Below are positions 2,893 to 55,215 of a stretch of DNA of 64,000 bases, piece after piece. The translations under genes and the position numbers were made by a program. The DNA lies in assembly GCA_951406725.2 (NCBI GenBank), contig OX597818.1, forward strand, positions 69,192,001-69,256,000, read 5' to 3'. Origin of the DNA: Octopus vulgaris (lineage: Eukaryota). The notes under the pieces are model-generated. The model did not search any database and was not told where the DNA came from. It saw nothing but the letters and a program-made list of their open reading frames with translations. How positions within the stretch are numbered: position 1 is the first letter of the stretch; each line of letters opens with the position of its first letter.

Positions 2893-4014
2893 GTTATAAA
2901 TAAAAAGAGAAATATAGTGTGATAAAATTTATTTAAAGATTGGAAATTCTTACATCATAATTGTTTCACAACTTAAAACATGCATTAATAGAAGCATCTT
3001 TAAATTAATGCAGATATTAAGCTCGCTCATTGAGTGAGAAAATATCTGATATGCAATAATATACACACATATGAACCATTAATCCCCACCCATTTTGTTT
3101 CTCTCTCTATTTCTCTCTCGGTTTTTTTTTTCTCTCAATCCTTCTGACAAAGAGTATATGCTTGAAATGTCATACACACACATCTTTAAACGCATATATT
3201 TGTGCAAGTATATGCTTCTTCTAATTTCTATGTATGTCTATCAATATGCTTCAATGTATGCAGATGTATAAAAGCTTATATATATATATATACACACTTA
3301 TACATTTCCATATAAACACACGGACATACCCATCACCACAAGCACCATACACACATGCAAATTTTACATTCCACTTCAAAATTCTTCCATCCCTTTTTCA
3401 ATGTTCCATTATTCCTCCTTTCTCTCTTTAATTCTCTGTTGCCATTCTCTTATAAACCCAGGGTTTTGCACTTTAAGTTTTAGTTTTTACTATAAGCTAC
3501 CAGTAATCGACTTTACTTACAAAGAAAAATCATATTCCAGATTTAGTTTCAAATATTTCTTAAATCTCTTTATCCATAAAATAGCTACCCCTACCGATTC
3601 TAGCACATTCCATACAGATTCAGACAGGTACACACACACACACGCACAGACCTGCAATCACAGTCACCCACACACACATCCATCTCCTCCAGCTTTTCCT
3701 ATTGTTCATCTCAAATGAACACCAGACTTCAATTCTATAGATCGCTGCCATCAATTGATGTCATTACCAAAGATACTTCAAATACTTCAAATTTACTCTG
3801 TATTATTCCTTAAATACCATTTTTACTATTCAGCTCTTTCAGCACCGCACACCCCCACCCACCCACCCTCACACACACTGATATGCATTCAGCCACAATA
3901 TTGGACCTATCTTATAGAAACTTTGTGATTTAAAGTCTACATTTAAGGAAATTGCTATAAATAACACAGAAATATTATAGAGTTCGCTTTCGGATTCAAT
4001 TAATTACCCACGGA

Positions 4015-6325: not shown

Positions 6326-8163
6326 CACATAGACACTCATATATATTATATCAGGTGTAAGAAATTTTCAAGAGAGTTGAACATCAGAAGGCCTTCAGAG
6401 AAGAATCCTCATCCACTCAGTCACGTGTTTTGGATCTTAACCTCTTATCTTCCAAGAGGACTGGGCCACATCTAGGTCATGACCCCTAGGTACCATTCTA
6501 CTGACACTTTTTAGCCACTTGGATATCAGAGACTTGTGCATTGAAACCACTTGGAGATTTCCTCTAGTTGTAACTTCTCCCCATTGACTCAGCTCTCAAG
6601 CTCATTCTTAAAGAAGAAATAATCTTGGTTGCCATGTTAGTGGTGAAACTTAAATGCTACCACAATGACTCACTCAGACTTATTTGTCTTAGCATTGAAA
6701 TATGAAAATTGCCTTCAAGCAGTATGGAGTTTATTATGTTATAACATATTATATCATATTATATATAACACTGGGAAATATTTCAAAACTTTAAACAGAC
6801 CCATAACCTGTATGTATTCTTTTGACAGGAACTGCCTGGAGCTCAGTAGTTGGGTAGAGAGTAGGGGGAAGAGAGAGAGAAAAAGCTGGCAGTGTTGTCG
6901 ACATTATGGAAATTTCTTCGCAATAAGCAGGGAAAATGCTCCTTATTTTTATCTCCTATTAGCTCAGCCAAGTCTACAAACTAGAGAGACTGCAGAAAGC
7001 CCTTACAAATGAAATACAGTTCCATTCTTTGGAACGTTCACGTCAATGACATGTCATCATATGTATGTTGAAGATTCTTGAAAATCTTGTTCCAGATATT
7101 TGTTTAAAGAGAGAAAACATGAAGAAAAGTTTAAAATAATGTTGGATGCCGACATTCTCATAGACTTTCGTGTGAGGAACTTATACAGCAATGGTTTATT
7201 AAAGCCCTCACTTTGACGACTGTCTTGTAAAACACTTTGCAGAACATAATCAAAGTTTCCTGCCAATTCTCTTACAGTGTGTCAAGATGAATTCCTCTCT
7301 AGATCCCAGATCTGCAAAAGGCTGCAACCCAGAAGGGGTAATCTCCACCATTTGGTTAATCAACCAGCTGTAGATGCCACATAAAGAAAGAAATGAAAAC
7401 TCTACAACTTTTGAGGTGATGTCACAAAATACATAAAGCATTTATTTCCAAAGACGCTGTTTCGACATAGTCTCTTTCATGATGGCATAATCGAAGCACA
7501 GGACAAAAGACACACACATACCGACAAGCAAATATGTACACACACACACACGTGTGTGCGTTCACATGCATATTAATGGGAGCAAAATGAAACGTTGAGA
7601 TATGTAAGACTCAAAGGAAAACCAGTGAATGTGTGATTTTAGCAAAGAGACATTCAACTTTCCAGTGGAAGACAGACATGACAGTTAAACCAAAACTTTT
7701 CTGTGATCAGAAAAAAGAATAACATCCATTCCACTGGTCTCTGATAATACCAAAGTGTCATCAAAGATCAGTTCCATGTTACTAGTCACAGAAGTGAAAG
7801 CTGCTGACCGTTATTTATGGTAGACACACAAACCCAACCGGAACCATATTGATTCATTGCGAGGAGCAGGAATTTAAGATAAACTTACAAGGGTTTAAAC
7901 ACATGCACTTAAGTTTACGCTACATATATATATATGTACATATGTATGCATGCATGCATGTATGTATGTGTGTATTTATGCATGCATGAATGCATACATT
8001 TATGCATGCGTGCATACATGTGTGTATGTAGGTCAGGTCACTGTACGTCATTGTTCAGGTCATATTTCAAGATTTCTTGCCAACAGAGAAAGAACCAGTT
8101 TCTAACCTCAATCCAAGACTCCCTCATTGGAACTTCAACATCAACAAAAGGGTATTTTTGTTT

Positions 8164-8220
8164 GTATGTATGTATGTATGTATGTATGTATGTATGTATG
8201 TATGTATGTATGTATGTATG

Positions 8221-8251
<31 letters not shown>

Positions 8252-8520
8252 GTATGTATGTATGTATGTATGTGAGTATGTATGTATGTATGTATGTATG
8301 TATGTATGTATGTATGTATGTATGTATGTATGTATGTATGTATGTATGTATGTATGTATGTATGTATGTATGTATGTATGTATGTATGTATGTATGTATG
8401 TATGTATGTATGTATGTATGTATGTATGTATGTATGTATGTATGTATGTATGTATGTATGTATGTATGTATGTATGTATGTATGTATGTATGTACGTATG
8501 TATGTATGTATGTATGTATG

Positions 8521-8551
<31 letters not shown>

Positions 8552-8692
8552 GTATGTATGTATGTATGTATGTATGTATGTACGTATGTATGTATGTACG
8601 TATGTATGTATGTATGTATGTATGTATGTATGTATGTATGTATGTATGTATGTATGTATGTATGTATGTATGTATGTATGTATGTATGTATG

Positions 8693-8723
<31 letters not shown>

Positions 8724-8984
8724 GTATGTATGTATGTAAGTATGTATGTACGTATGTATGTATGTAAGTATGTATGTATGTATGTATGTATGTATGTATG
8801 TATGTATGTATGTATGTATGTATGTATGTATGTATGTATGTATGTATGTATGTATGTATGTATGTACGTATGTATGTATGTATGTATGTATGTACGTATG
8901 TATGTATGTAAGTATGTATGTATGTATGTATGTATGTATGTATGTATGTATGTATGTATGTATGTACGTATGTATGTAAGTATG

Positions 8985-9015
<31 letters not shown>

Positions 9016-9036
9016 GTATGTATATATGTATGTAAG

Positions 9037-9067
<31 letters not shown>

Positions 9068-9100
9068 GTATGTATGTATGTATGTAAGTATGTATGTATG

Positions 9101-9131
<31 letters not shown>

Positions 9132-9132
9132 G

Positions 9133-9163
<31 letters not shown>

Positions 9164-9280
9164 GTATGTATGTATGTATGTATGTAAGTATGTATGTAAG
9201 TATGTATGTATGTATGTATGTAAGTATGTATGTATGTATGTATGTATGTATGTATGTATGTATGTACGTATGTATGTATG

Positions 9281-9311
<31 letters not shown>

Positions 9312-9356
9312 GTATGTATGTATGTATGTATGTATGTATGTATGTATGTATGTATG

Positions 9357-9387
<31 letters not shown>

Positions 9388-9493
9388 GTATGTAAGTATG
9401 TATGTATGTATGAATGTATGTATGTATGTATGTATGTGTGTACTATGTATGTATGTAAGTATGTATGCATGTATGTATGTATGTATGTATGTA
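8164..9493. repeat. Very long (TATG)n microsatellite (~1.33 kb) with TAAG/TACG variant units
   Basis: Direct reading; it produces the 530-aa and 448-aa artefactual ORFs. Confidence 0.98.
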
Positions 9494-13207: not shown

Positions 13208-13760
13208 AGATGCAGGAGTGGTTGTGTGGTAAGTAGCTTGCTAAACAACCACATGGTTCCGGGTTCAGTCCCACTGCGTGGCATCTTGGGCAAGTGTCTT
13301 CTGCTATAGCCCTGGGCCAACCAATGCCTTGTGAGTGGATTTGGTAGACGGTAACTGAAAGAAGCCTGTCGTATATATCATCATCATCATCATCATCATC
13401 ATTTAGCGTCCGTTTTCCATGCTAGCATGGGTTGGACGGTTCTGCTGGGGTCTGTGAAGCCAGAAGGCTTCATCAGGCCCAGTCACACTTTCAGCACACC
13501 CGCCCCCGCTGTATATATATATATATATATGTATGTGTGTATGTTTGTGTGTCTGTGTTTGTACCCCTAGCATTGCTTGACAACCGATGCTGGTGTGTTT
13601 ACGTCCCCATCACTTAGCCGTTCGGCAAAAAGAGACAGATAGAATAAGTACTGGGCTTACAAAGAATAAGTCCCGGGGTCGATTTGCTTGACTAAAGGCG
13701 GTGCTCCAGCATGGCCGCACTCAAATGACTGAAACAAGTAAAAGAAAAAGAAAGAAAGAA
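13208..13760 (+). mobile_element. Full-length bipartite SINE with internal microsatellite and a nested fragment (13378-13485) of the RTE-tail family
   Basis: Head gcaggagtggttgtgtggtaag..gggttcagtccc; 3' half gcttgacaaccgatgctggtgtg...ccagcatggccgcactcaaatgactgaaacaagtaaaaga. Confidence 0.85.
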
Positions 13761-13968
13761 AGAAATATATACATACACACACACACATACATCACATATA
13801 TTTCTCTTCTCTCCTCTCTTTCTCTCATCTCTACATCTTTTCTATTTCTTGCATTTCCTCCTTCATTCACTATGCCTATCTCTCAGTCCTTGACCAGCTC
13901 ACATTCCCCAATCCTGTCCTCACACTCCTGTTCCTCTGTATCATTGCTATTGTTGATGTTGTTGTTCA

Positions 13969-14345
13969 GGTCACGGCCTGGAATCGAACTCGGAATCTTT
14001 GGGTTAGTAGCCTGCGCTCTTAACCACTACTCCATATTCCCGTGGGCATATAGCATAGTGGTTAAGAGCGCGGGCTACTAACTCCAAGATTCCGAGTTCA
14101 ATCCCAGGCAGTGACCTGAACAGTAATAAAGATGATGATGATGATGATAATAATAATAACAACATCGAAAAATACCTGAGGAATGAGAACCCAGGTTCGA
14201 AATTTTCCCAAGACACCTGATGAAGGCTGGAGGGTATATCAGCTGAAACATTGTGTTAACAACAAACAAGATGAGGACAAATATCCATCAAATGTAAATA
14301 ATGTAAATAATGTACATAATTCCTCATCTCTTAAATATAGAACTG
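13969..14345. mobile_element. Palindromic tRNA-head/hammerhead element, copy 1
   Basis: Head-to-head tRNA-like units at 13969-14041 (-) and 14044-14116 (+), GAT/AAT spacer, hammerhead at 14212-14257, conserved tail ending aaatatagaactgt. Confidence 0.85.
14212..14257 (+). ncRNA. Minimal type I hammerhead motif with CpG-decay substitutions
   Basis: GACAC-CTGATGA-A-GGCTG-loop-CAGCT-GAAAC-ATT-GTGTT; the intact version is at 33932-33977. Confidence 0.65.
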
Positions 14346-14859
14346 TTTTACCCTGTTTGTTGTTCTATCACTGCCTCTGGCTTTGGTTTTCTTGTTTAAT
14401 TATGAACCATATGTTTATGTAGATATGTGTGTGTGTGGGTAGGGCACGTATATGTATACATTTATGCATGCACAATGGTCTCTAAAATAGGCAGAATCGT
14501 ATATTCTTTAAGCTGAGGAATTTAAGCATTGAATTAAATATTTAAGTATTAAATATATTCTCTAAGCTGAGAAATTAATGTATTGAATTAATCAATTTAA
14601 GTATTAAATTAAGTATTTAAGTACTTAATGTGTTCGTTATGAAGAGAAAGAGGGCCCAGTAACATGGATATATGCTTTATCAATCCATTGATAAATATTT
14701 TATTCCCTGTCATCACATTTGTCTTTGAGAACAGCAGGAGTTAAAATGGTTCTATTTTAAGAAAGTTTAGCAACTACAGAAATAAACTCCAATTAATTCA
14801 TGAATTATGGGATTGTTGATTAAATACATTGCAGGTTAACACTGTATCTGTAAATTTAT

Positions 14860-14995
14860 TGTGTGGTCAGAAAATTGCTTCCCAAGTACATGGTTCTGGG
14901 TTCAATCCCACTGCATGGTACCTTAGGTAAGGATCTACTGCTATAGCCTCAGGTCAACCAAAACCTTAGGAGTATATTTGTGAAAAGCCTGTTGT
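14860..14995 (+). mobile_element. SINE 5' half, degenerate
   Basis: Homologous to 13215-13370. Confidence 0.6.
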
Positions 14996-26757: not shown

Positions 26758-27492
26758 AGGCACAGGGGTGGCTGGGTGGTAAGAAGCTTACTTCCCAAAC
26801 ACATGGTTCTGGGTTCAGTTTCATAGCATGCATATGTCTTCCACGGTAGTCCCAGAATGACTAAAGACTTGTGACTTGATTTGGTAGACAGAAACTGAAA
26901 GAAGCCTTTCAGGCGCCTAAAGGTGGTGAGCTGGCAGAATCGTTAGTGTGCCAGCTGAAATGCTTAGTGGTATTTCGTCTGCTATTATGTTCTGAGTTCA
27001 AATTCCGCCACAGTTGACTTTGGCTTTCATCCTTTCGGGGTCGATAAATTAAGTATCAATTATGCACTGGGGTCGATGTAATCAACTTAATCCCTTTGTC
27101 TGTCCTTGTTTGTCCCCTCTGTGTTGAGCTCTTTGTGGGTAATTAAGAAAAAAGAAACTGAAAGAAGCCCATTGCATATGTAACAAACTAAGGCTGTGTA
27201 GATTTTAGAACATTTATAAATAGAAGGTTTTGAAAACGTGTTCCGGCGCCCAGCGGCACGATGCTAACACAGCCTTGTGTTTGTGTTTGTTCCCCACCAC
27301 TGCTTGACAACCAGTGTTGGTGTGTTTACATCCCCATAACTTAGTATTCAGCAAAAGAGACTAATTGAATTAGTACCAAGTTTTACACCACAGGTACTGA
27401 GATCGATTGAACTGGCTAAAAATTCTTCAAGGCAGTGCCCCAGCATGGCCACAGCTTAATGCCTGAAAGGTGTGTAAAAGATAAAAGATAAA
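26758..27492 (+). mobile_element. Bipartite SINE interrupted by a second SINE (26907-27152) flanked by a 17-bp duplication
   Basis: agaaactgaaagaagcc at 26890-26906 and 27153-27169 flanks a ggtggtgagctggcagaatcgttag.. SINE. Confidence 0.85.
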
Positions 27493-27680: not shown

Positions 27681-28617
27681 ATCTTGGGGTTAGTAGCCCA
27701 CACTCTTAACCACTACGCCACGGGTATATGGCATTGTGGTTAAGAGCACAGGCTACTAGCCCCAAGATTCTGAGTTCGATTCCAGGCAGTGACCTAAATA
27801 ATAGTAATAATAAAAATAATAATGGGTAGCAAGCCGACCTTCCCTGAATGATATCTCAGCTTCAATTCCCACCATCCATACAGTGTAAAGAGAGGGATTG
27901 CTCAGTGCCTAAAACGTTGAGCAAAGAATATAAGGAGCAATCGTGATACACACCACAAAGAAATGATGAAGCTCAGTAACAATCTATTAAGCAACAACTA
28001 CCCCAAAAGTATATACTATCCACTGCAATTATGAAGAAGAGAGAGGATGAGGCCAACCTACCCTATGTGAAAGGCCTCTCCAAAAAGATACAAAAGATAT
28101 GCGGTCCATATGACATCAGGACAGTATTCAAAAGTAATACAACACTTCAAAATATTTCCTTTGAGTAAAACCACCAATAGAAGAGAATATGACTAAGAAC
28201 TGCATGTACTCCATCCCATGCAGCTGTGGTAGGTTATACAAAGGTGAAACATGCCACCCCCACAAAATAAGGGTAGAGGAACATCACAAAGCTGTGACAC
28301 GAGGAGATATTGATAAATCGGGTATTGTTGATCATGTATGGAAAAATGGAGACCACCTCCCCCTGTGGGATGAAGTTAAAATAATAGACAGAGAACACCA
28401 CTGGAAAATGAGAAAACTAAAAGCATCAGCACATATGCTAGGACACAACAACCTCCTTAGCAGACCGAGTGCAGATATGGGCAGCATATGGGAACTGGTA
28501 TTAAGGAAAGAAAGGAAATAGCTGAAATGTTGTGTTAACAACAAACAAGATGAGGACAAATATCTGTCAAATGTAAATAATGTACATAATTCCTCATCTT
28601 TTAAATATAAAACTGTA
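27681..28617 (+). mobile_element. Palindromic tRNA-head element, copy 2, fused to a Penelope ORF fragment
   Basis: Partial minus head 27681-27720, plus head 27722-27794, (AAT)n, PLE ORF remnant, then the 3' half of the hammerhead and the family tail at 28520-28617. Confidence 0.85.
27829..28521 (+). pseudogene. PLE RT-thumb/linker plus GIY-YIG endonuclease, disrupted
   Basis: KPTFPE*YLSFNSHHPYSVKRGIAQCL..LPYVKGLSKKIQKIC..MYSIPCSCGRLYKGETCHPHKIRVEEH..SGIVDHVWKNGDH..WDEVKIIDRE..RKLK; stops and frameshifts. Confidence 0.88.
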
Positions 28618-29249: not shown

Positions 29250-29605
29250 TTATGGCCTGGAGGATTATGACGAGTAAAAGGAAACTGAGAACCTCACTTT
29301 GGTAAACTCCCTCTTGTTCACTGAACTTTAATTCACTGTACTCATAGCCAATTCTCAACCTGTTGACAGCAATCCTATACATAAACTATACAGCTCTAAT
29401 GAGTCACTCATTTTTTAATTCCCTTAGAGACCACCAGGGATTCTGTCATACTTTTTTCCAGCACGACGAAAGTCAAGTACAATGGTTTACTTTTGGCCAG
29501 ATAGTTCTTCCACAGCTGCCTCACTATGAAGGTGGCATGTGTAGAACTCTTTCCTGGCACAATTTCAAAGAGCATCTCATCTAGCTTAATTATATTCCTA
29601 ATCAA
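29250..29605 (-). mobile_element. RTE LINE reverse-transcriptase fragment
   Basis: FEIVPGKSSTHATFIVRQLWKNYLAKSKPLYLTFVVLEK matches the FGF.PG.ST.DAIF.VRQLQEK..L.LAFVDLEKAFD pattern. Confidence 0.8.
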
Positions 29606-29777
29606 TTGGGGTATAACATTTCTTGATCTTTCACACAGACACACACACACGCAAAGACAGATAGACAGACAGGCAGGCAGGATGATAGATCGATAGGTGT
29701 GGAGGTAGATAGATAGATAGACAGATAGATAGATGGCTGGGTAGGTAGATAGATAAATAAATAGACCGGTAGGTAAA

Positions 29778-30187
29778 TATCTTTCTTTATTAGCTGCACA
29801 GGGCTGGACACAGACGGGACAAATTACAAAGTGGAGCTTTTCTTTTTGGAGAGAAAAAAAAATGGGGTAGGTTTTCGATCAAAAGGGATTGTAAAAAGGA
29901 ATAAAAAAGAAAAAAAGAAAAATGAAAAGAAAAAGAAAACGATCAATAGGGATCGTGTATCACAGAAATGTCATGATGTAAAGTGTAAAGAGAGATGTAA
30001 AGTGTAAAGGTTTATCCATGGAATAGAAAAGCCTACAGAAAAGACCATGGTAACTTCGGTCATTAATGTCACATGTTAACACATTTATTTGCAAGTAACT
30101 CTGTTTTAAATTTTTCCAGGTTCATAGGATTATGCTCAAGGTGGCTTTGGCATTCTATGTGCCATCCTTGCTACATTCGCCCATCTT
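29778..30187 (-). mobile_element. Probable LINE 3' end (possibly Tx1/L1-like) embedded in a (GATA)n tract
   Basis: Unique ~410-bp sequence between two GATA arrays; minus strand has a short RW..V..M coding remnant, T-rich UTR and a terminal aataaagaaagat. Confidence 0.35.
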
Positions 30188-31699: not shown

Positions 31700-32660
31700 T
31701 ATCATCATCCAGATCCTTTGACTGATGCAGCCAGTCTTTGAAGTGCCAGCCTCAATGCATTCATAGTCAGTCATCACCCTTTGTCTCTGTTCTCTGTCTT
31801 GTTTAACAGGTTCACTGCGTTGTGACCTGTTCAGTCCATGACGATGTCAAACTAAGGAATCCTTTGTCTGCCTATCTTTTGCCCCACCCTCAACATGCCT
31901 TGAAGAATGGTTTCGAGTTGTGGCAGGATACATAACTGTACCAGGAAAGCTTTCATCTTCTGCACCTGCGCATGGAGTCGTTCCTGTCTGCCAGAGTATT
32001 TATTGACTTTATGCTTGACAAATATGACCGTTTTGTGCTGTGTACTGGATGTGAAACAGCCTTCAGAAGCATTTGCACCCAAATGCCTGGATTCTTCATT
32101 CCATGTCAGCGGTAAGACTCCAGCTCTCAGACTCATACAGAAGGATTGAAGTCACCAGGGTCTTGCTGGAAAACTAATGGAATTGTTTTGCCATGTTGTT
32201 CAACTTCAGCACAGCAGCAGACGATAGGCTGAGTCTTGTTGTTATCTCCTTTTGATATCTGTTGTTCTTGGTTAAAGTGGATCCTAGGTACTTGAGGGTC
32301 TCCACTTCATCAAATCTCTCTCTCCATTTAACATGATGCTTGTTGCTTTGTTTTGTTTGTTACTAGTAACCAGGATCTTGTTCTGTTGATCTCCATCCCG
32401 TAGACTCCCGGTACTTTTTCCAATCTAGTGGTGAGCTCCTGTAGTTCTGCTTCAATGCTTCCTAACAGGTCAATATCATCAGCAGAGTGCATGTTGGAAA
32501 TAGACCATTCTCTCATGGAAACAGAGAGGTAAAGGTCTTGAAGTGTCTCCTGCAGGATATTCTCCAGGAAGATGTTGAAAAGCACTGGAGAGAGGAGACA
32601 TCCTTGTTGAATTCTTACTGTTATCCTGAAGAGTTCTTCAATGTTGTTATTCAGGAGAGT
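31700..32660 (-). mobile_element. RTE-type LINE, RT to 3' end
   Basis: QQGCLLSPVLFNIFLE..SADDIDLL..ELQEL..YGMEIN..KYLGS..LLYESESWSL..RIQAF..ILQG; (ATG)n tail near 31702. Confidence 0.9.
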
Positions 32661-33555
32661 AAGTTCAGTCATCTGCTGTACACCAGCATCCACCAGGTTC
32701 ATCACCATTTGTGTGGTTGCAAGTCCACAGAATATTATCATCATACAAGTCTATGGTCCAACACTTGAACCTGATGAGGAATTCAATGATGACTTGGAGA
32801 AAATCGCCCAGGCAGCTCCTTATGATGTCCTCATAGTCCTAGGAGACTGGAATGCCAAAAAAGGGCTGGATACATATGACCAGTGGGATGATTTGGGATT
32901 GGAGAAACCAAAAACAGCAATGACCATAGGTGATGCTAGCCACCACATTGTTCCCCAACAAGACCTCACACAGAACGACATGGCATGCACCCAGAAGCAA
33001 GTCTCACAACCAAATTGGCTTCCTCTTCGCACCTCAGAAGTTCAAGTCCAGTATCAACAAGGCTAGGACTAGGACTCTCCCTGGTGTGGACACCAACAGT
33101 GATCATGATGACAATGAGGCTCAAACTGAAAAGGACCCACAACAAAAAGGGCCACACATATTAGGCTTAAGGTAGACAAACTGAACGATCCTAAGGTTAC
33201 ATCTGAGTTTGAGGCAAAAGAAGATGGTGGTTTGTAGCTCTTAACCTTCTACAAGATTATAGAAGCTCCAAAACGGAAAACATCAATGAAGCACTTTGAG
33301 AAATGGCTCCAGAAGTGCTGGCGAGAAGAAAAAGGAAAAATAAACCATGGAACACTGATGACATCTTGGATCAATGCGATTTAAGATGGGTCCTGAGGCA
33401 GACCAAGTTAATGAGTCAGGAGGTAATGAGTCAGCAATCAAAGCACTGAAAAGGTAGGTTAAGAAGAAAATGCCTCAAGTCAAAAGAGAAATATGGAGAG
33501 CAGACCAGTTCAAAATAACTGAAGAAAGGATAAAGAAGGGCAACCGCATACAGGT
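32661..33555 (+). mobile_element. Inverted APE-endonuclease/linker part of the same LINE type
   Basis: IIQVYGPT..EEFNDDLE..LIVLGDWNAK..TWHAP..NQIGFL..RTLPGVDTNSDHD. Confidence 0.88.
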
Positions 33556-33567
33556 ATACATTTTTTT

Positions 33568-33785
33568 TTACCTGTTTTAATCATTAGACTGTGGCCATGC
33601 TGGGGTACCACCTTGAAGAATTTTTAGTCAAACAAATTGATGCCAGTACTTATGTTTTATTTGTTTGTTAAGTCTGTTACTTACTCTATCGGTCTCTTTT
33701 GCCAAACCACTAAGTTATGGGGATGCAGACACACCAACACTATTTGTCATGCAGTAATGGGGACAACACAGTCACAAAGACATGC
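33568..33785 (-). mobile_element. SINE 3' half (family of 13208-13760)
   Basis: tcattagactgtggccatgctgggg...tctatcggtctcttttgcc...taagttatggggatg. Confidence 0.75.
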
Positions 33786-33851
33786 ACACACACACACACA
33801 CGCACACACATTGGTATTTTCAAAGTTTTAGCATATGACACTTGCTCAAGT

Positions 33852-34274
33852 ACAGTTTTATATTTAAGAAATGAGGAATTATGTACATTATTTACATTTG
33901 AAGGATATTTGTCCTCATCTTGTTTGTTGTTAACACAACGTTTCGGCTGATAAACCCTCCAGCCTTCATCAGGTGTCTTGGGGAAATTTCAAACAAGGGT
34001 TCTCATTCACTCTATAATTGCCCACAGGCATATGGCGTAGTGGTTAAGAGTGCGGGCTACTAGCTCCAAGATTCCGAGTTCGATTCCAGGCAGTAACTTG
34101 AATAATAATAATAAGAAGAAGAAGAAGAACATCGAAAAAATACCTTAGGAATGAAAACCCAAGTTCGAAAATTCCCCCTAAGACACCTGATGAAGGCTGA
34201 AGGGTATATCAGTTGTGTTCACAACAAACAAAATGAGGTCAAATATTCATCAAATGTAAATAATGTAAATAATG
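33852..34274. mobile_element. Palindromic tRNA-head/hammerhead element, copy 3, with 13-bp TSD
   Basis: Minus tail plus hammerhead at 33852-34008, plus head 34026-34098, plus tail to 34274; cacttgctcaagt at 33839-33851 and 34275-34287. Confidence 0.88.
33932..33977 (-). ncRNA. Intact minimal type I hammerhead motif
   Basis: Reverse complement: GACAC-CTGATGA-A-GGCTG-GAGGGTTTAT-CAGCC-GAAAC-GTT-GTGTT; loopless stem III with palindrome AACGTT. Confidence 0.75.
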
Positions 34275-35328
34275 CACTTGCTCAAGTGCCACACCATGGC
34301 AGCAGGGGTTGTCCAGTGCCTATTTACCCTTGGTTGGTGATGACAAATGGAAAGTAAGCCCCTTATTTTGATAAGTAAGGTATTTTAATTTGTTTTACAA
34401 ACAGTTTTCCAAGTCAGAATGGAAAAGTTTTCAACTGTTCAGACATAAAACAAATGAATGAACAAGCAGATTTTTGCATGTGTGCATGTGTGCATGTGTG
34501 CACCTTGATGTGCATGTGTGCATGTATAAAAGTATGCACCTTGATGTGCATGAGTGTGTGAGTGAGTGTAATTCTATAATAAGATTAAGATGCTGCAGTG
34601 TAAAAATAAATAATAATCTTTTTACCTTCATTTTATTTTTTAAATAATAATAAAGAATAAAAATGCCTAAAAAAAATACAAACAAATAAACCAGGAGTTA
34701 CAAAGAAAAAATAGACAAAGAGATAGCGATAGAATAAATAAATTTATAAATTAAAAGGATTGGTGTGGTGGTGGTGGTGGTGGTGGTGGTGGTGTGTGGG
34801 GCAGCGATATTTTAATTTATATTTCTCTAAAACAGTTTTTCTTCTTCACTAAGCATACAAAAAGATGATCCACCCACATGAGGAAATGACTCGCTACGTT
34901 CAATGATATTGATTCTGTTGTTATTGTTGTCATCACAATTTATCATTCAGCATTTTCTTCATCCGACCCACCTTTGTTGCAGCTCCAGATATGATGTAGA
35001 TAAGAGAAATTCAAGTCAGATGATCTTCAAATGCACCAGGAAAAAAAAATAAAATAAAATAAATATATAAAATAAATAAAAATAAAGAAGAGAAATGGAA
35101 ATTATAAAAAGATTCTTGAGAGTAGGATGAATTTAGGTCTGTTCAGAGAAGGTAAAAAGAGGGGGAAAAAGGGGAAAAAAAGAGGCTGCTCTTATTTACT
35201 CCAAAGATAACTTCACTTTACATATCATAGATTCATTTTCTTTTTGTCTTGATAAATCTGGAAAAAATAAATGCAAAATGTATTTTTTTTCAGTTAAACT
35301 ATTTACAAATATATACATACATACATAA

Positions 35329-50835: not shown

Positions 50836-53099
50836 AAATCAGAATTTGGTTCTCTTTATATTTAATCTGATTAATATTGTGTTGTATCTCCGAAATTTAT
50901 CTCTTCATATTTTTACCAGTAATTTATCTGTTCTTTAACATCCAGATACTTCTACTTCCTCGGTGATGGGTCTCCTTCATTTGACTTTGAGGATTCCCGG
51001 ATTCTATTAACATGGAATCAGTTGAGGATCACACAGACATATTTACCTTCAATGCAATTCTCAAGCAGAAACAACATGACACAATCTAAGAAAAAAGTTA
51101 CAACCCAATCCACGACCTTTTAAAAGGTTTCTGTCACCCCTATTTCCTACACAACGCATCAGTTGACTCGAGGCTATAGGACATGACATTGGCCCAAGGT
51201 TCTACGCAGTCATATCGAACTCCAGACCTTGTGGTAGTGAAGCGAAATTACGAACTTCAAAACCATTCAGTCATACCGCACTTACATCTGTGTATGTCTA
51301 CATGTAAGCATGTATGTATATAATGTACATAATGTAGGAACTATATGCGAGAAGTTTGATGTTGCATAGTAATGAAACACGGGTATTAAATGTTGAATGT
51401 ATATTCGCATCGGCTGAAGAGAAATGATTTGGGTATGTATCATTGAATCTGCTATGTTAACCTCTGCGAAAGATGGAGCACAAGTCACAAGTGAGATGAG
51501 AGAGAGCATTTGAGCATTAACAGCTCCAACCGATTTATGCAAGAGAGATCTTTGCAATGAAATTGATATTGAAATGTGAATAGAGTATGAGATACTGGCT
51601 TAAAAAGTAAGTGTTCTCTGCTGACTGTAGAACAACGAGGAGGAAAGAAGAGGTGTGGGGGGAGAGATGTTGATATCTCAAGTTGTTGCACCTCACAAAG
51701 TCAAAGTGACAAAAGAATTACTATAATTCACCATAAATATAAGCCACCCCGATTATGTGCCACCATGAACATAGCTTATTGCATCAGAAGACAGATATTA
51801 AATTCCGACGATGAAAGAAGATTGTGCAGAAAGACCTGACTCAGATGGTTGTCATCTGAGAAAAGGGGTGCAGTTTGACTCAGAATTGTATTGTTTAGAA
51901 TGCTATCACCACCCGATTCTCTTTGAGGAACACAGAGACAGCGTACCACATGTATATCTACATACACTCACACACATATAAACATGCATATGTGTATTAC
52001 TGGTTAGTTGTGTATAAGTTGGAAATAAGCATACTCTAAAAGACAAATTGAGCAATTATATTTTATATTGTTGAGCATTATATCATTTGCTTTGACGTAT
52101 AACAAGTGATAAAGTTACCATTGGTAACTTTAGACATAGTAGCACTTTAGACATTCTGTCCGGAAGTGCAATACCTCTTCTTTTGCAGGAGATGGATGAT
52201 CAAAAGGAGTTACTAGTACTTTCCTGTTTTCTTACCTCTAATCCGAAAAAGGGGACAAAACACGTTATCAAAATGAATTTTCTATCGTGAGGGCAGCAAC
52301 AAAATATCTAACTTTTTTTTTAGTTCAGGAAGGTAGCCAGATCAGATAAGCTCTGATTTTCAAGATTTGCAATCCAATATATCCCAGACATGATCACGTA
52401 AGATATAATAATTAAGATACAATGTATTTAGGACAACATTATCCAATGCATACGTTTTTCTTTTGAAGAGGACAGACTGTGACTTTAAAAAAAATTTCAC
52501 TGCTGTTTCTGGAAGGCAAAATATATGTGAAGAGTATCATTTGAGACATTGTTTAGGGTAATTACGTTGCTAGCTACCCCTATCTTATGTGAATGGAAGC
52601 TTGTATGGGATTATGTGCTTGACTAGTGAAATACAACTTTTATTTCCTGGGATGTAAGCAACCTGATTAACTTCCAAAAGAATGCTTTCGCTCATCTCAC
52701 ACGGAATAATGCACTAAATTTGATGCGGCACTTTGTTAGCTTTTTATTCTGTTATTTTTTTACTTGATTCCCTCATTGGACTACGGCCTTTCTGGGGCAC
52801 CGCCTTAAAATGCTGGCTTTATTATATAATAATTGAATATTAAAATTGTTTTAAATCAGAAATCGATGCATGTATAGCATTTGGCTATCAAAAGGAAACA
52901 GATGCACCAGTGCCGTGCATTCAAAATATTTAAGCTTGCTGTCTTGATGTAGCGATCTCATGCATATGACATTTTTCTTTACCATTGTCATGCATACTGT
53001 TTTAGCCAGCCTAAGAGCCATTTTTGGCGCATCAAATAGATCGTGTGATATTTTGGCCAACCTAAAGAGCCATTTTTGGCACGTAAAACGGATCATGGT

Positions 53100-53276
53100 C
53101 GAAAATCTTAGAGCAAGATTATTTCATTGTTTCCGTGTTTTTACTGTAATTCCTTCTACAATTTCTTTTTGTACAAGTAACCACAACCAAGATATATTCC
53201 ACACATTGCACCAGAAATCTCTGCCCTGTCCACTCTCCCAGCTTTTGCAGGTCCTCAATTTCCTGTTGTGTGTCAC
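53100..53276. repeat. ~180-bp dispersed direct repeat, partner at 54369-54548
   Basis: gaaaatcttagagcaagattatttc..aagtaaccacaaccaagat..tcaatttcctgttgtgtgt in both places. Confidence 0.85.
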
Positions 53277-53773
53277 ATTCATTTTGGCCAATCAAAATCT
53301 AATAGCTGGTGAGATACTTGGGTTGGTATTAAGCAAGTCTAAATCTTTTCGTTCCAATGGTTCATTCACTTGACACCGAATATGTATGCTAGTAGTAGAT
53401 ATGGTTAACCATTCCGTCTCATTCTCACTGATTATTTTGGTTAGCAGACTGTATTGTGTTTTACCCTCGACAAAATAATTTTCCCATCTCAAATACATAA
53501 ACATTTCATCCATTTTCTCATTTACTGATTGTAGTTAGTGTATGTGCACGCATTTTAATCTTCCATGGAAATTATTTCATTTACGTTAACATTTTTCACA
53601 CAAGTAATCAGATTGTTTTCGTGGGAAACTAAAATACCTGTGTACATATAACAAGTGTGTTCGTATAACCTTTACTCCGAATGATGTAAAATAAACTCTA
53701 TTATTTTTCCATTGTGATATTTTCAACGTTGTTTTCCTTGTCTGTATTTTCAAACTACACGCTTTCTAGCAAA

Positions 53774-54176: not shown

Positions 54177-55215
54177 TTACCAGCAAGATCCGTCGAAATC
54201 TAGTTTTTCAGGCAATCAAAAATAAAGGAAATTATACACAATCAGTTTTGTGTTTATATCTATAAACAATCTCTCAGTTTTCTAAATTATCATTTACAAA
54301 CACTTTTCAAAAGCGCAAAGCACATCCGTAGACCTCACACAACACAACTATGTTGCAACAAAATGGCTGAAAATCTTAGAGCAAGATTATTTCGTTGTTT
54401 CCATGTTTTACTGTGATTCCTTCTACGATTTCTTTTTCTTCAAGTAACCACAACCAAGATGATACACTCCACCCGTTGCGGCGCCAGAAATGTCTGTCCT
54501 GTCTCCACCGCCTTAGCTTTTGTAGGGTCTCAATTTCCTGTTGTGTGTTTCTCCCAATAAAGTCAATATCGCTGAGTCTGTTAAGGTGTGGAAGTCCACA
54601 AAGTATTGACCAGTTGTTCAGCAGGACAACAGAGACCAGCAAAGCTTACCATACGCTGAACTACTATAGCAGAGATGGTGGAATGTTTCAATACATATCT
54701 TTCATCTTGTGCTTATGCCATGAGATGCTTGAAACCCTCAGGAAAAACTTGATGTACAAAACAAAGAAAAATTCAGAAAAATACCCAACAATCTTGTTTA
54801 TTTTAATTTATTGTGTAATAAATGTTAATATCACGCAAGAAATTATTCTAAGGATGCAAGAATGATACAAAGCGCTGCTCTATAGGTTTTGGTAATGACT
54901 ACTTCAGTTGCTTGCTCCGCTGAACTGCATATCGATAGAATAATTATAACGTAAATAGCTGAAAATTCCACAAGCTCTTGTACTCCTCACTGATTTTGAT
55001 TTACAGACAGTTCACCTGACAGGTTTCAGCACAGTTGCCACTCACCCTCACCTCCAAGATCTGGAGTTGCCTGAGGCTATAGGACACTTGCTCAGAATAT
55101 CACGCGGTAGGATTGAACCTGTAACCTCATGTTTAAAGTATGCATCCTAACCACTTGGCCATTTGAGCAACCAATAATAATGCAGCAAATGTACACAATA
55201 ATATATACGCAGTCA

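Follow-up and report, generated by a model that had tools for sequence, protein, structure and literature searches.

Head-to-head copies of the end repeat of an octopus Penelope-type element carry a tRNA-derived head that is probably an internal Pol III promoter

What kind of mobile element leaves two tRNA-like units back to back, with a hammerhead ribozyme motif behind one of them, is the question raised by a locus of the Octopus vulgaris genome (2.8 Gb). The window, i.e., the whole stretch of DNA analyzed, comprises 64,000 nt (OX597818.1, 69,192,001–69,256,000), has a GC content of 28–44% with plentiful simple repeats, and holds three copies. In copy 1, a tRNA-derived head forming an inverted arm on the minus strand (13965–14041) and a tRNA-Arg(TCG)-like head on the plus strand (14044–14120; A box 14051–14061, B box 14094–14104) are 87% alike, and the back-to-back arrangement claimed by the original prediction is borne out. 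The centre between them is GT (14042–14043), lies within the 5-bp inverted repeat TGCCC-NN-GGGCA, and reads AC in the native element. Behind the right head, all on the plus strand, come the predicted trinucleotide spacer, which is variable in length ((AAT/GAT)n, 14121–14163), a 5′ leader with the start of a Penelope ORF (14164–14211, ATG at 14183), a minimal type I hammerhead inside this ORF, recognized by its core motif (14212–14257), and a tail (14258–14345) that corresponds to ORF codons ~26–54. Two zones of RT start fall on this tail, one near (~14301–14321) and one far (~14342–14351), the latter being the end of the copy 1 arm. The left arm carries neither hammerhead nor tail, and its outward side is a decayed trinucleotide tract.

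The heads of copy 2 (27681–27798) comprise a partial inverted head (27681–27718), in which positions 1–9 are missing and a break occurs at position 47, an AC centre, and a complete head (27722–27798). A broken Penelope ORF fragment with the RT thumb, linker, and GIY-YIG endonuclease (27826–28518, plus strand) sits between this head and the 3′ half of a hammerhead with its tail (28520–28615, plus strand). Copy 3 is a whole two-armed insertion (33839–34289) flanked by a 15-bp target duplication (33839–33853 and 34275–34289), and it consists of a long inverted arm (33853–34008) in which the predicted mirror-image tail was found, the native linker plus AC (34009–34025), a head (34026–34102), and a short arm that extends to 34274. 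A complete head preceded by either orientation of the centre, as had been proposed, is indeed present, with GT in copy 1 and AC in copies 2 and 3; copy 3, however, is no double head, as its AC is preceded by the native linker of the element and not by a mirrored head.

When the endonuclease fragment of the window was used as a genome query, 150 scored matches were returned and 30 loci were fetched. In 27 of the 30, the head lies on the same strand ~45 nt past the endonuclease match, followed by the spacer, hammerhead, and tail, and the suspected link to Penelope is confirmed by this position of the head behind the end of a GIY-YIG ORF. An upstream walk could be read for 28 loci, in 23 of which the tail continued directly into the N-terminus of the ORF. 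The order of the unit is ORF end, 30-nt linker, head, (AAT)n, ATG, hammerhead, tail, and rest of the ORF; one locus (L218) is a true tandem in which ORF end, linker, head, spacer, hammerhead, tail, and ORF follow one another, and two others (L199 and L215) are ORF-bearing copies with the head as their start. The head-(AAT)n-hammerhead-tail segment constitutes the pLTR, or end repeat, of an autonomous Penelope/Poseidon-type element, and the arm, originally taken for an independent retrozyme, is this pLTR together with the start of the ORF.

The majority frame that begins at the ATG ahead of the hammerhead contains no stop in its three scored parts, and the hammerhead and tail encode the N-terminus of the Penelope ORF. 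The same hammerhead-encoded N-terminus is present in a full-length relative of 847 aa (P0003; 45%, E = 3e-29 to L213, and E = 5e-4 to copy 1). RT was recognized in a 569-aa open frame (L091; RVT_1, E = 2.7e-6, just below the Pfam cut-off), and a GIY-YIG-type domain with CCHH residues (YSIPxSCG..YKGET..EH..DH) was assigned by eye; Pfam gave no endonuclease match for the endonuclease fragment of the window. No CX2-5CxxC finger of the RT-EN linker was seen by eye when compared with its definition in the available part of PMC8557442. Judged by its domains and linker, the protein is of the Penelope/Poseidon type. The element has the following features of EN+ Penelope-like elements (PLEs): RT with a C-terminal GIY-YIG domain containing CCHH, a partially tandem pLTR with a type I hammerhead, inverted 5′-truncated copies, and an optional 30–40 bp tail. 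No relative of the element was found among viral contigs.

Three other assignments were tried and rejected. SINE2 elements share the tRNA-derived head with A and B boxes, but the body here is the ORF start of the partner and the head is a part of that partner. A non-LTR retrozyme does not fit short copies that are single arms or inverted pairs with no same-direction tandem hammerhead units, and a Tc1/mariner MITE, suggested by the CAG..CTG-TA ends, does not fit asymmetric ends, duplications of 10–16 bp, and a TA after the tail that is ORF sequence. SINE, retrozyme, and MITE thus each miss a defining feature, and the short copies would be SINE-like if the Pol III assignment discussed below holds.

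The majority head aligns without gaps to the genome's own tRNA-Arg(TCG) at 44 of 72 positions (z = 9), the best score among 27 tRNA sequences, and the A box, the CT-ACT-AA loop, and the B box are seen, as originally described, in the majority of 208 heads. Both boxes are intact in the majority head and the cloverleaf stems are lost, a combination that is usual in SINE heads and makes a poor substrate for RNase P. Heads of the older subfamily (n = 4) also match tRNA-Arg at 44/72, and of the nine differing sites, four are nearer to the tRNA and four farther from it. ARAGORN reported nothing in the window and scattered low-threshold matches in relatives, and Rfam searches of the whole window, copy 1, L002, L068, and L342 returned microsatellite and hairpin noise with no tRNA or hammerhead match; the tRNA origin of the head rests on direct alignment and the identity of the ribozyme on the core motif. 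Since PLE sequence follows the head in 44 of 51 cases, the head is no free SINE; six of the other cases end in microsatellite. Long (AAT)n tracts without hammerhead or tail follow the head in L421, L459, L460, L462, L467, and L002, which may have been microsatellite-primed or later deleted.

PLE promoters are located in the pLTR upstream of the ORF, as is the head here, according to the parts consulted of PMC6765202 and PMC2377424. In the 2663-nt majority sequence, the sense strand has 31 A4 runs but lacks T4 runs altogether (4.8 on average in shuffles, P = 0.005), an absence that is weak by codon shuffles (P = 0.095 and 0.39) and shared by 3 of 20 head-less relatives. As far as its sequence indicates, the tRNA-derived head is likely to act as an internal Pol III promoter and to define the 5′ end of the RNA. 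One of 35 relatives with post-ORF sequence, a distant full-length PLE on a metagenome contig (L342, 38% identity), carries, between the end of the ORF and the hammerhead and thus placed as in the octopus element, a tRNA-like stretch with A and B boxes and a short AAT tract (2820–2910 and 2986–3025). This stretch gave no alignment to the octopus head and no Rfam match, and its tRNA promoter may have been captured independently, which is noted as a lead only.

The claimed minimal type I hammerhead with a palindromic stem III is supported by the majority sequence, in which the core CUGAUGA / GAAAC-GUU is accompanied by stems I and II and stem III is loopless and palindromic, as described for minimal type I hammerheads of PLEs in the portion consulted of PMC4209133. 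In copy 1, stem I (14212–14216/14253–14257), CUGAUGA (14217–14223), GAAAC (14245–14249), and a predicted cut after 14252 can be placed, with GAAAC-ATT for GAAAC-GTT (AUU versus the majority GUU) and a broken pair in stem III. The strict core is kept in 90 of 368 copies, and no non-CpG site varies more than the free core position (T 78%, A 20%). The hammerhead is predicted from these motifs to be an ordinary PLE pLTR ribozyme. Because cleavage would separate the upstream head from the rest, the template must be RNA that was left uncleaved, as with PAc (Poseidon_Ac) of Anolis carolinensis, which does not need ribozyme cleavage (PMC11167929, in part). In RNA-seq of organism B (~6% of each of three runs, with reads placed at an identity of at least 82%), 10094, 7644, and 7016 reads fell on the element, alike in both directions and with loose ends at the two tail sites, and pile-ups of starts or ends, including at the cut site, were not seen, the library type being unsuited to revealing them. 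This pattern is consistent with read-through of many copies and is silent on Pol III and cleavage.

The double head, used as a genome query, hit 41 loci, each of them matching on both strands, and a perfect 22-nt centre occurs at 351 places as against 0 for the reversed control; the double-head feature is therefore real. Complete copies with tail, hammerhead, and head on both sides, which had been postulated, are many among 30 fetched records. A 21-nt head anchor occurs 4117 times in the genome, and a random sample of 40 stretches of 10 kb contained fragments in five and heads in two, too few for counting classes, which were counted from exact-pattern loci. The median divergence of copies from the majority is 4.4% (non-CpG), with <1% in 15 of 358. 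Several loci on contig 1 (L237/L238, L426–L428, and L470–L473, 7.9–9.1 Mb) are near-identical with shared flanks, which points to segmental duplication and slightly inflates the counts. An older subfamily (L511–L530) shows the same order of head, spacer, and hammerhead with variants in the A box and variable loop, and at least one of its copies is ORF-linked (L520).

The 3′ ends of the arms are bimodal and form two clusters ~40 nt apart. Among 122 two-armed elements, which were drawn from all own-genome loci fetched and are not a random sample, 107 combine one long and one short arm ending at the far and the near tail site, respectively, whereas 57 mixed pairs of the 115 classed as long or short would be expected from independent ends (P = 1e-23). 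A target duplication with a score of at least 10, typically 10–16 bp in length, flanks 76 of the 122, as compared with 0.75 for shuffled pairs. Derived variants are shared between arms 3.5 times more than between random pairs (68 in 9361 sites), so many arm pairs stem from one source or were homogenized; on the other hand, arms are discordant at subfamily sites (12 T/A pairs versus 13 A/A and 60 T/T), and they differ at head site 64 in 7 of 34 double heads. Taken together, the variant excess and the discordance indicate that the arms often have one source and often two, and that they are no plain copy of one cDNA. In the available text on PAc, its protein nicks and extends both strands in vitro and RT starts at two internal sites (PMC11167929). 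PLEs are also known for inverted copies whose tail is one-sided (PMC8557442, in part). From the long/short pairing and this two-strand, two-site behavior of PAc, we infer one cDNA per target strand and one per tail site.

At the centre, the native junction TGCCC-AC-GGGCA is a 5-bp inverted repeat inside an imperfect hairpin, and its exact native form occurs 376 times, about as often as the perfect mirror (351). A fixed centre had been expected; instead, junctions vary, and among the first 50 perfect-centre loci listed, the mirror spans 10–25 nt in 48 and a whole head in two (three by a looser test). Beyond the short mirror (n = 47), the sequence continues as an inverted partner arm in 31, as a same-strand ORF in one, and as neither in 15. 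Heads with an intact start number 1781; among the first 100 in the list, ~24 are native and six are full mirrors by eye, and of the first 30, classed by script, 10 are native, three of which are one duplicated segment, and one is a full mirror. Roughly one in three or four heads is continuous with the ORF. When heads were picked by their 3′ end, 20 of 30 departed from the native sequence between +6 and −7, three departed in the preceding 50 nt, and five ran on, a few of these loci being duplicates. The truncations of ORF-linked copies are instead spread evenly farther upstream, with 5 of 70 in the first 25 nt, 28 at 26–139 nt, and 37 beyond. The first base of the head is a true hotspot of cDNA 5′ breaks. 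That the mirror limit reflects an RNA start near −22 is not supported, since ORF-linked copies show no truncation there. At one locus (L524:1440–1500), two inverted heads are joined via a repeated unit made of the centre and the first 22 nt of the head, which matches the mirror limit and suggests repeated jumps.

In the 47 short-mirror loci, the longer head is preceded by AC in 19, GT in nine, AT in 18, and GC in one; GT was found in none of 100 native centres listed and in a few entries of other lists of ORF-linked heads. GT copies require either transcription of an inverted head or a flip of the centre at a later time. Full heads after GT (9) and AC (19) would be compatible with transcription from either head and are no proof of it. 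A subfamily marker showed no association with the class of the centre, and no diagnostic site tying double heads to one lineage was found.

Based on these observations, we propose, with a probability of roughly 60%, that the pLTR of an autonomous Penelope/Poseidon element is copied twice head-to-head per insertion and that its tRNA-derived head likely serves as an internal Pol III promoter. The RNA would start a few nucleotides upstream of the head through type 2 A/B boxes, and Pol III, meeting no T4 terminators, could traverse the whole 2.7-kb unit; the head of the 3′ pLTR may also give short head-hammerhead-tail RNAs that are mobilized in trans. A GIY-YIG/RT dimer would nick both target strands ~13 nt apart, and each nick would prime one cDNA, one per tail site and often on different RNAs, after which the two cDNA 3′ ends could be joined via microhomology. 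A cDNA that reaches the start of the RNA may fold back on the native TGCCC-AC-GGGCA and gain a mirror of up to ~25 nt by snap-back synthesis, a reaction carried out by host end-joining polymerases. If the partner cDNA has got as far as the head too, the mirror would anneal perfectly and a full double-head palindrome would form. The palindrome is the shortest class, and the most rarely symmetric one, of ordinary inverted Penelope insertions, i.e., a by-product and no new class of element. Several points weigh against this reading: the RNA-seq shows no sign of Pol III in a library type blind to starts and ends, the junction is itself an RNA hairpin that could stall RT without a promoter, Rfam and ARAGORN recognize no tRNA in the head, 15 of the 47 short-mirror loci have no partner arm, the mirror limit of ~22–25 nt and the GT-type copies are accounted for by inference only, and arm pairs share derived variants well above random.

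A bolder extension, which we advance tentatively and rate somewhat short of an even chance, is that a tRNA-Arg promoter was captured by an autonomous, protein-coding retrotransposon and lets Pol III make its 2.7-kb mRNA, one sequence thereby acting both as a LINE-like element and as its own SINE; the inverted heads of double-head copies would fire both ways and seed further rounds, and L342 may be an independent capture.

The rival view, in which the Penelope element and the double priming stay unchanged but the head is a dead relic of a tRNA or SINE, with RNA made by Pol II or read-through and the hotspot caused by the hairpin (RT stalling and snap-back) or an RNase P-like cut, seems unlikely. 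It gains from the native junction hairpin, which at −16 kcal/mol is imperfect and reaches head position ~23, near the mirror limit, from the quarter or so of heads that are crossed by cDNAs continuing into the ORF, and from the discrete RNA ends absent from the RNA-seq, although that library type would not show them. Moreover, Penelope of D. virilis has a LINE-like internal promoter according to the part consulted of PMC2377424. However, the breaks centre on the loop and the first base, many of them without any mirror, where a stall would presumably be expected at the base of the hairpin; furthermore, the majority head has kept its A and B boxes while losing its stems, and no T4 run interrupts 2.66 kb.

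The original prediction itself has become very improbable; it posited a fold-back master of ~600 bp, non-autonomous and mobilized as a unit by Penelope, whose two Pol III promoters diverge and whose transcripts each contain a ribozyme. At least 41 double-head loci do share one centre position, and many are two-armed, and full heads after GT in 9 of 47 loci, set against none among the native centres, suggest that some templates may be inverted heads. Nevertheless, the arm is the 5′ end of the ORF itself, uninterrupted double heads account for two of the 50 perfect-centre loci, and the arms are often discordant at subfamily sites, with no site diagnostic of double heads. As junctions between the arms vary, an outcome that the original prediction had itself named as refuting, there is no fixed fold-back master, and as one arm is cut at the near tail site, no symmetric master was copied.

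That mirrors and centre flips arose after insertion, through quasi-palindrome correction at replication forks and deletion in long palindromes, is scarcely credible: the native quasi-palindrome reaches about as far as the mirrors, inter-strand switching inverts palindrome centres, and a few ORF-linked heads have GT. Such later changes may account for part of the GT class. However, correction in place would keep mirrors on the ORF end, which was seen in 1 of 47, and random-length deletions would give no sharp stop at 25 nt.

One of the known systems close to this element is PAc, in which RT is joined to a C-terminal GIY-YIG domain, the hammerhead of the pLTR marks the start of the ORF, RT starts at two internal sites 30–45 nt apart that delimit an optional tail, targets are AT-rich, and both strands are primed (PMC11167929, in part). 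In contrast to PAc, the octopus element has an A/B-box tRNA-derived segment upstream of the ORF start with a strong 5′-end hotspot there, and the portion consulted of PMC11167929 makes no mention of such a segment. The inverted and partial-tandem PLE insertions of Craig et al. (PMC8557442, in part) likewise place an inverted 5′-truncated copy beside the pLTR with a 30–40 bp tail at one end; in the octopus, a centre recurs in the shortest class, which on rare occasions forms a perfect double-tRNA palindrome, and the pairing of a long and a short arm is quantified. The SINE-like repeats SM-alpha and Sj-alpha of Schistosoma also have a Pol III-type promoter followed by a hammerhead; they are described as non-coding tandem repeats (PMC6765202, in part), whereas the octopus element is protein-coding and autonomous and its short copies are inverted pairs. 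Metazoan non-LTR retrozymes, which are PLE derivatives, share the short, pLTR-related type I hammerhead, but form tandem units with two same-direction ribozymes and circular RNA (bioRxiv 10.64898/2026.07.22.740005; PMC7761336; both in part). Mollusc SINE heads derived from tRNA-Arg are similar in having a tRNA-Arg-like head with A and B boxes (PMC4758252, in part), as are the octopus SINEs OR and OK, reportedly described by Ohshima and Okada in 1994. The heads of the element differ in mostly running into PLE sequence, without a SINE core or LINE tail. No PLE with a tRNA-derived pLTR or such a palindrome was found in the literature searched, although Repbase, Dfam, and SINEBase may contain the consensus. 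Two features are new within that literature: a head of tRNA origin at the probable start of the RNA of an autonomous PLE, and the strict pairing of long and short arms.

These observations bear on how PLEs form inverted insertions and on what drives their transcription. The genomic signature described here (a far and a near RT start per insertion, a duplication of ~13 bp, and partly different templates) makes a testable insertion model of the two-strand priming seen in vitro for PAc. If the head works as a Pol III promoter, the mRNA of a protein-coding retroelement would be made by Pol III, which would be undescribed for a Penelope-type protein-coding element and would blur the boundary between SINEs and autonomous elements; it would also suggest a route by which Pol III-plus-hammerhead repeats such as SM-alpha arise. 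Thousands of such fragments are liable to be mislabeled as SINEs or MITEs.

Another abundant SINE-like repeat, presumably the common octopus SINE, lies beside all three copies in the window (pieces at 13500–13750, 14868–14960, 27290–27470, and 33570–33780). A tetranucleotide (ATGT) array of ~1.5 kb lies at 7936–9460, and simple repeats yield all of the miRNA noise in Rfam. Remnants of LINE-like RT and AP endonuclease were recognized by eye in open frames at 29411–29878 (minus strand), 32331–32750 (minus strand), and 32611–33063 (plus strand), and a similar peptide segment is common to the open stretches 52948–53370 and 54380–54862, which suggests two copies of another repeat.
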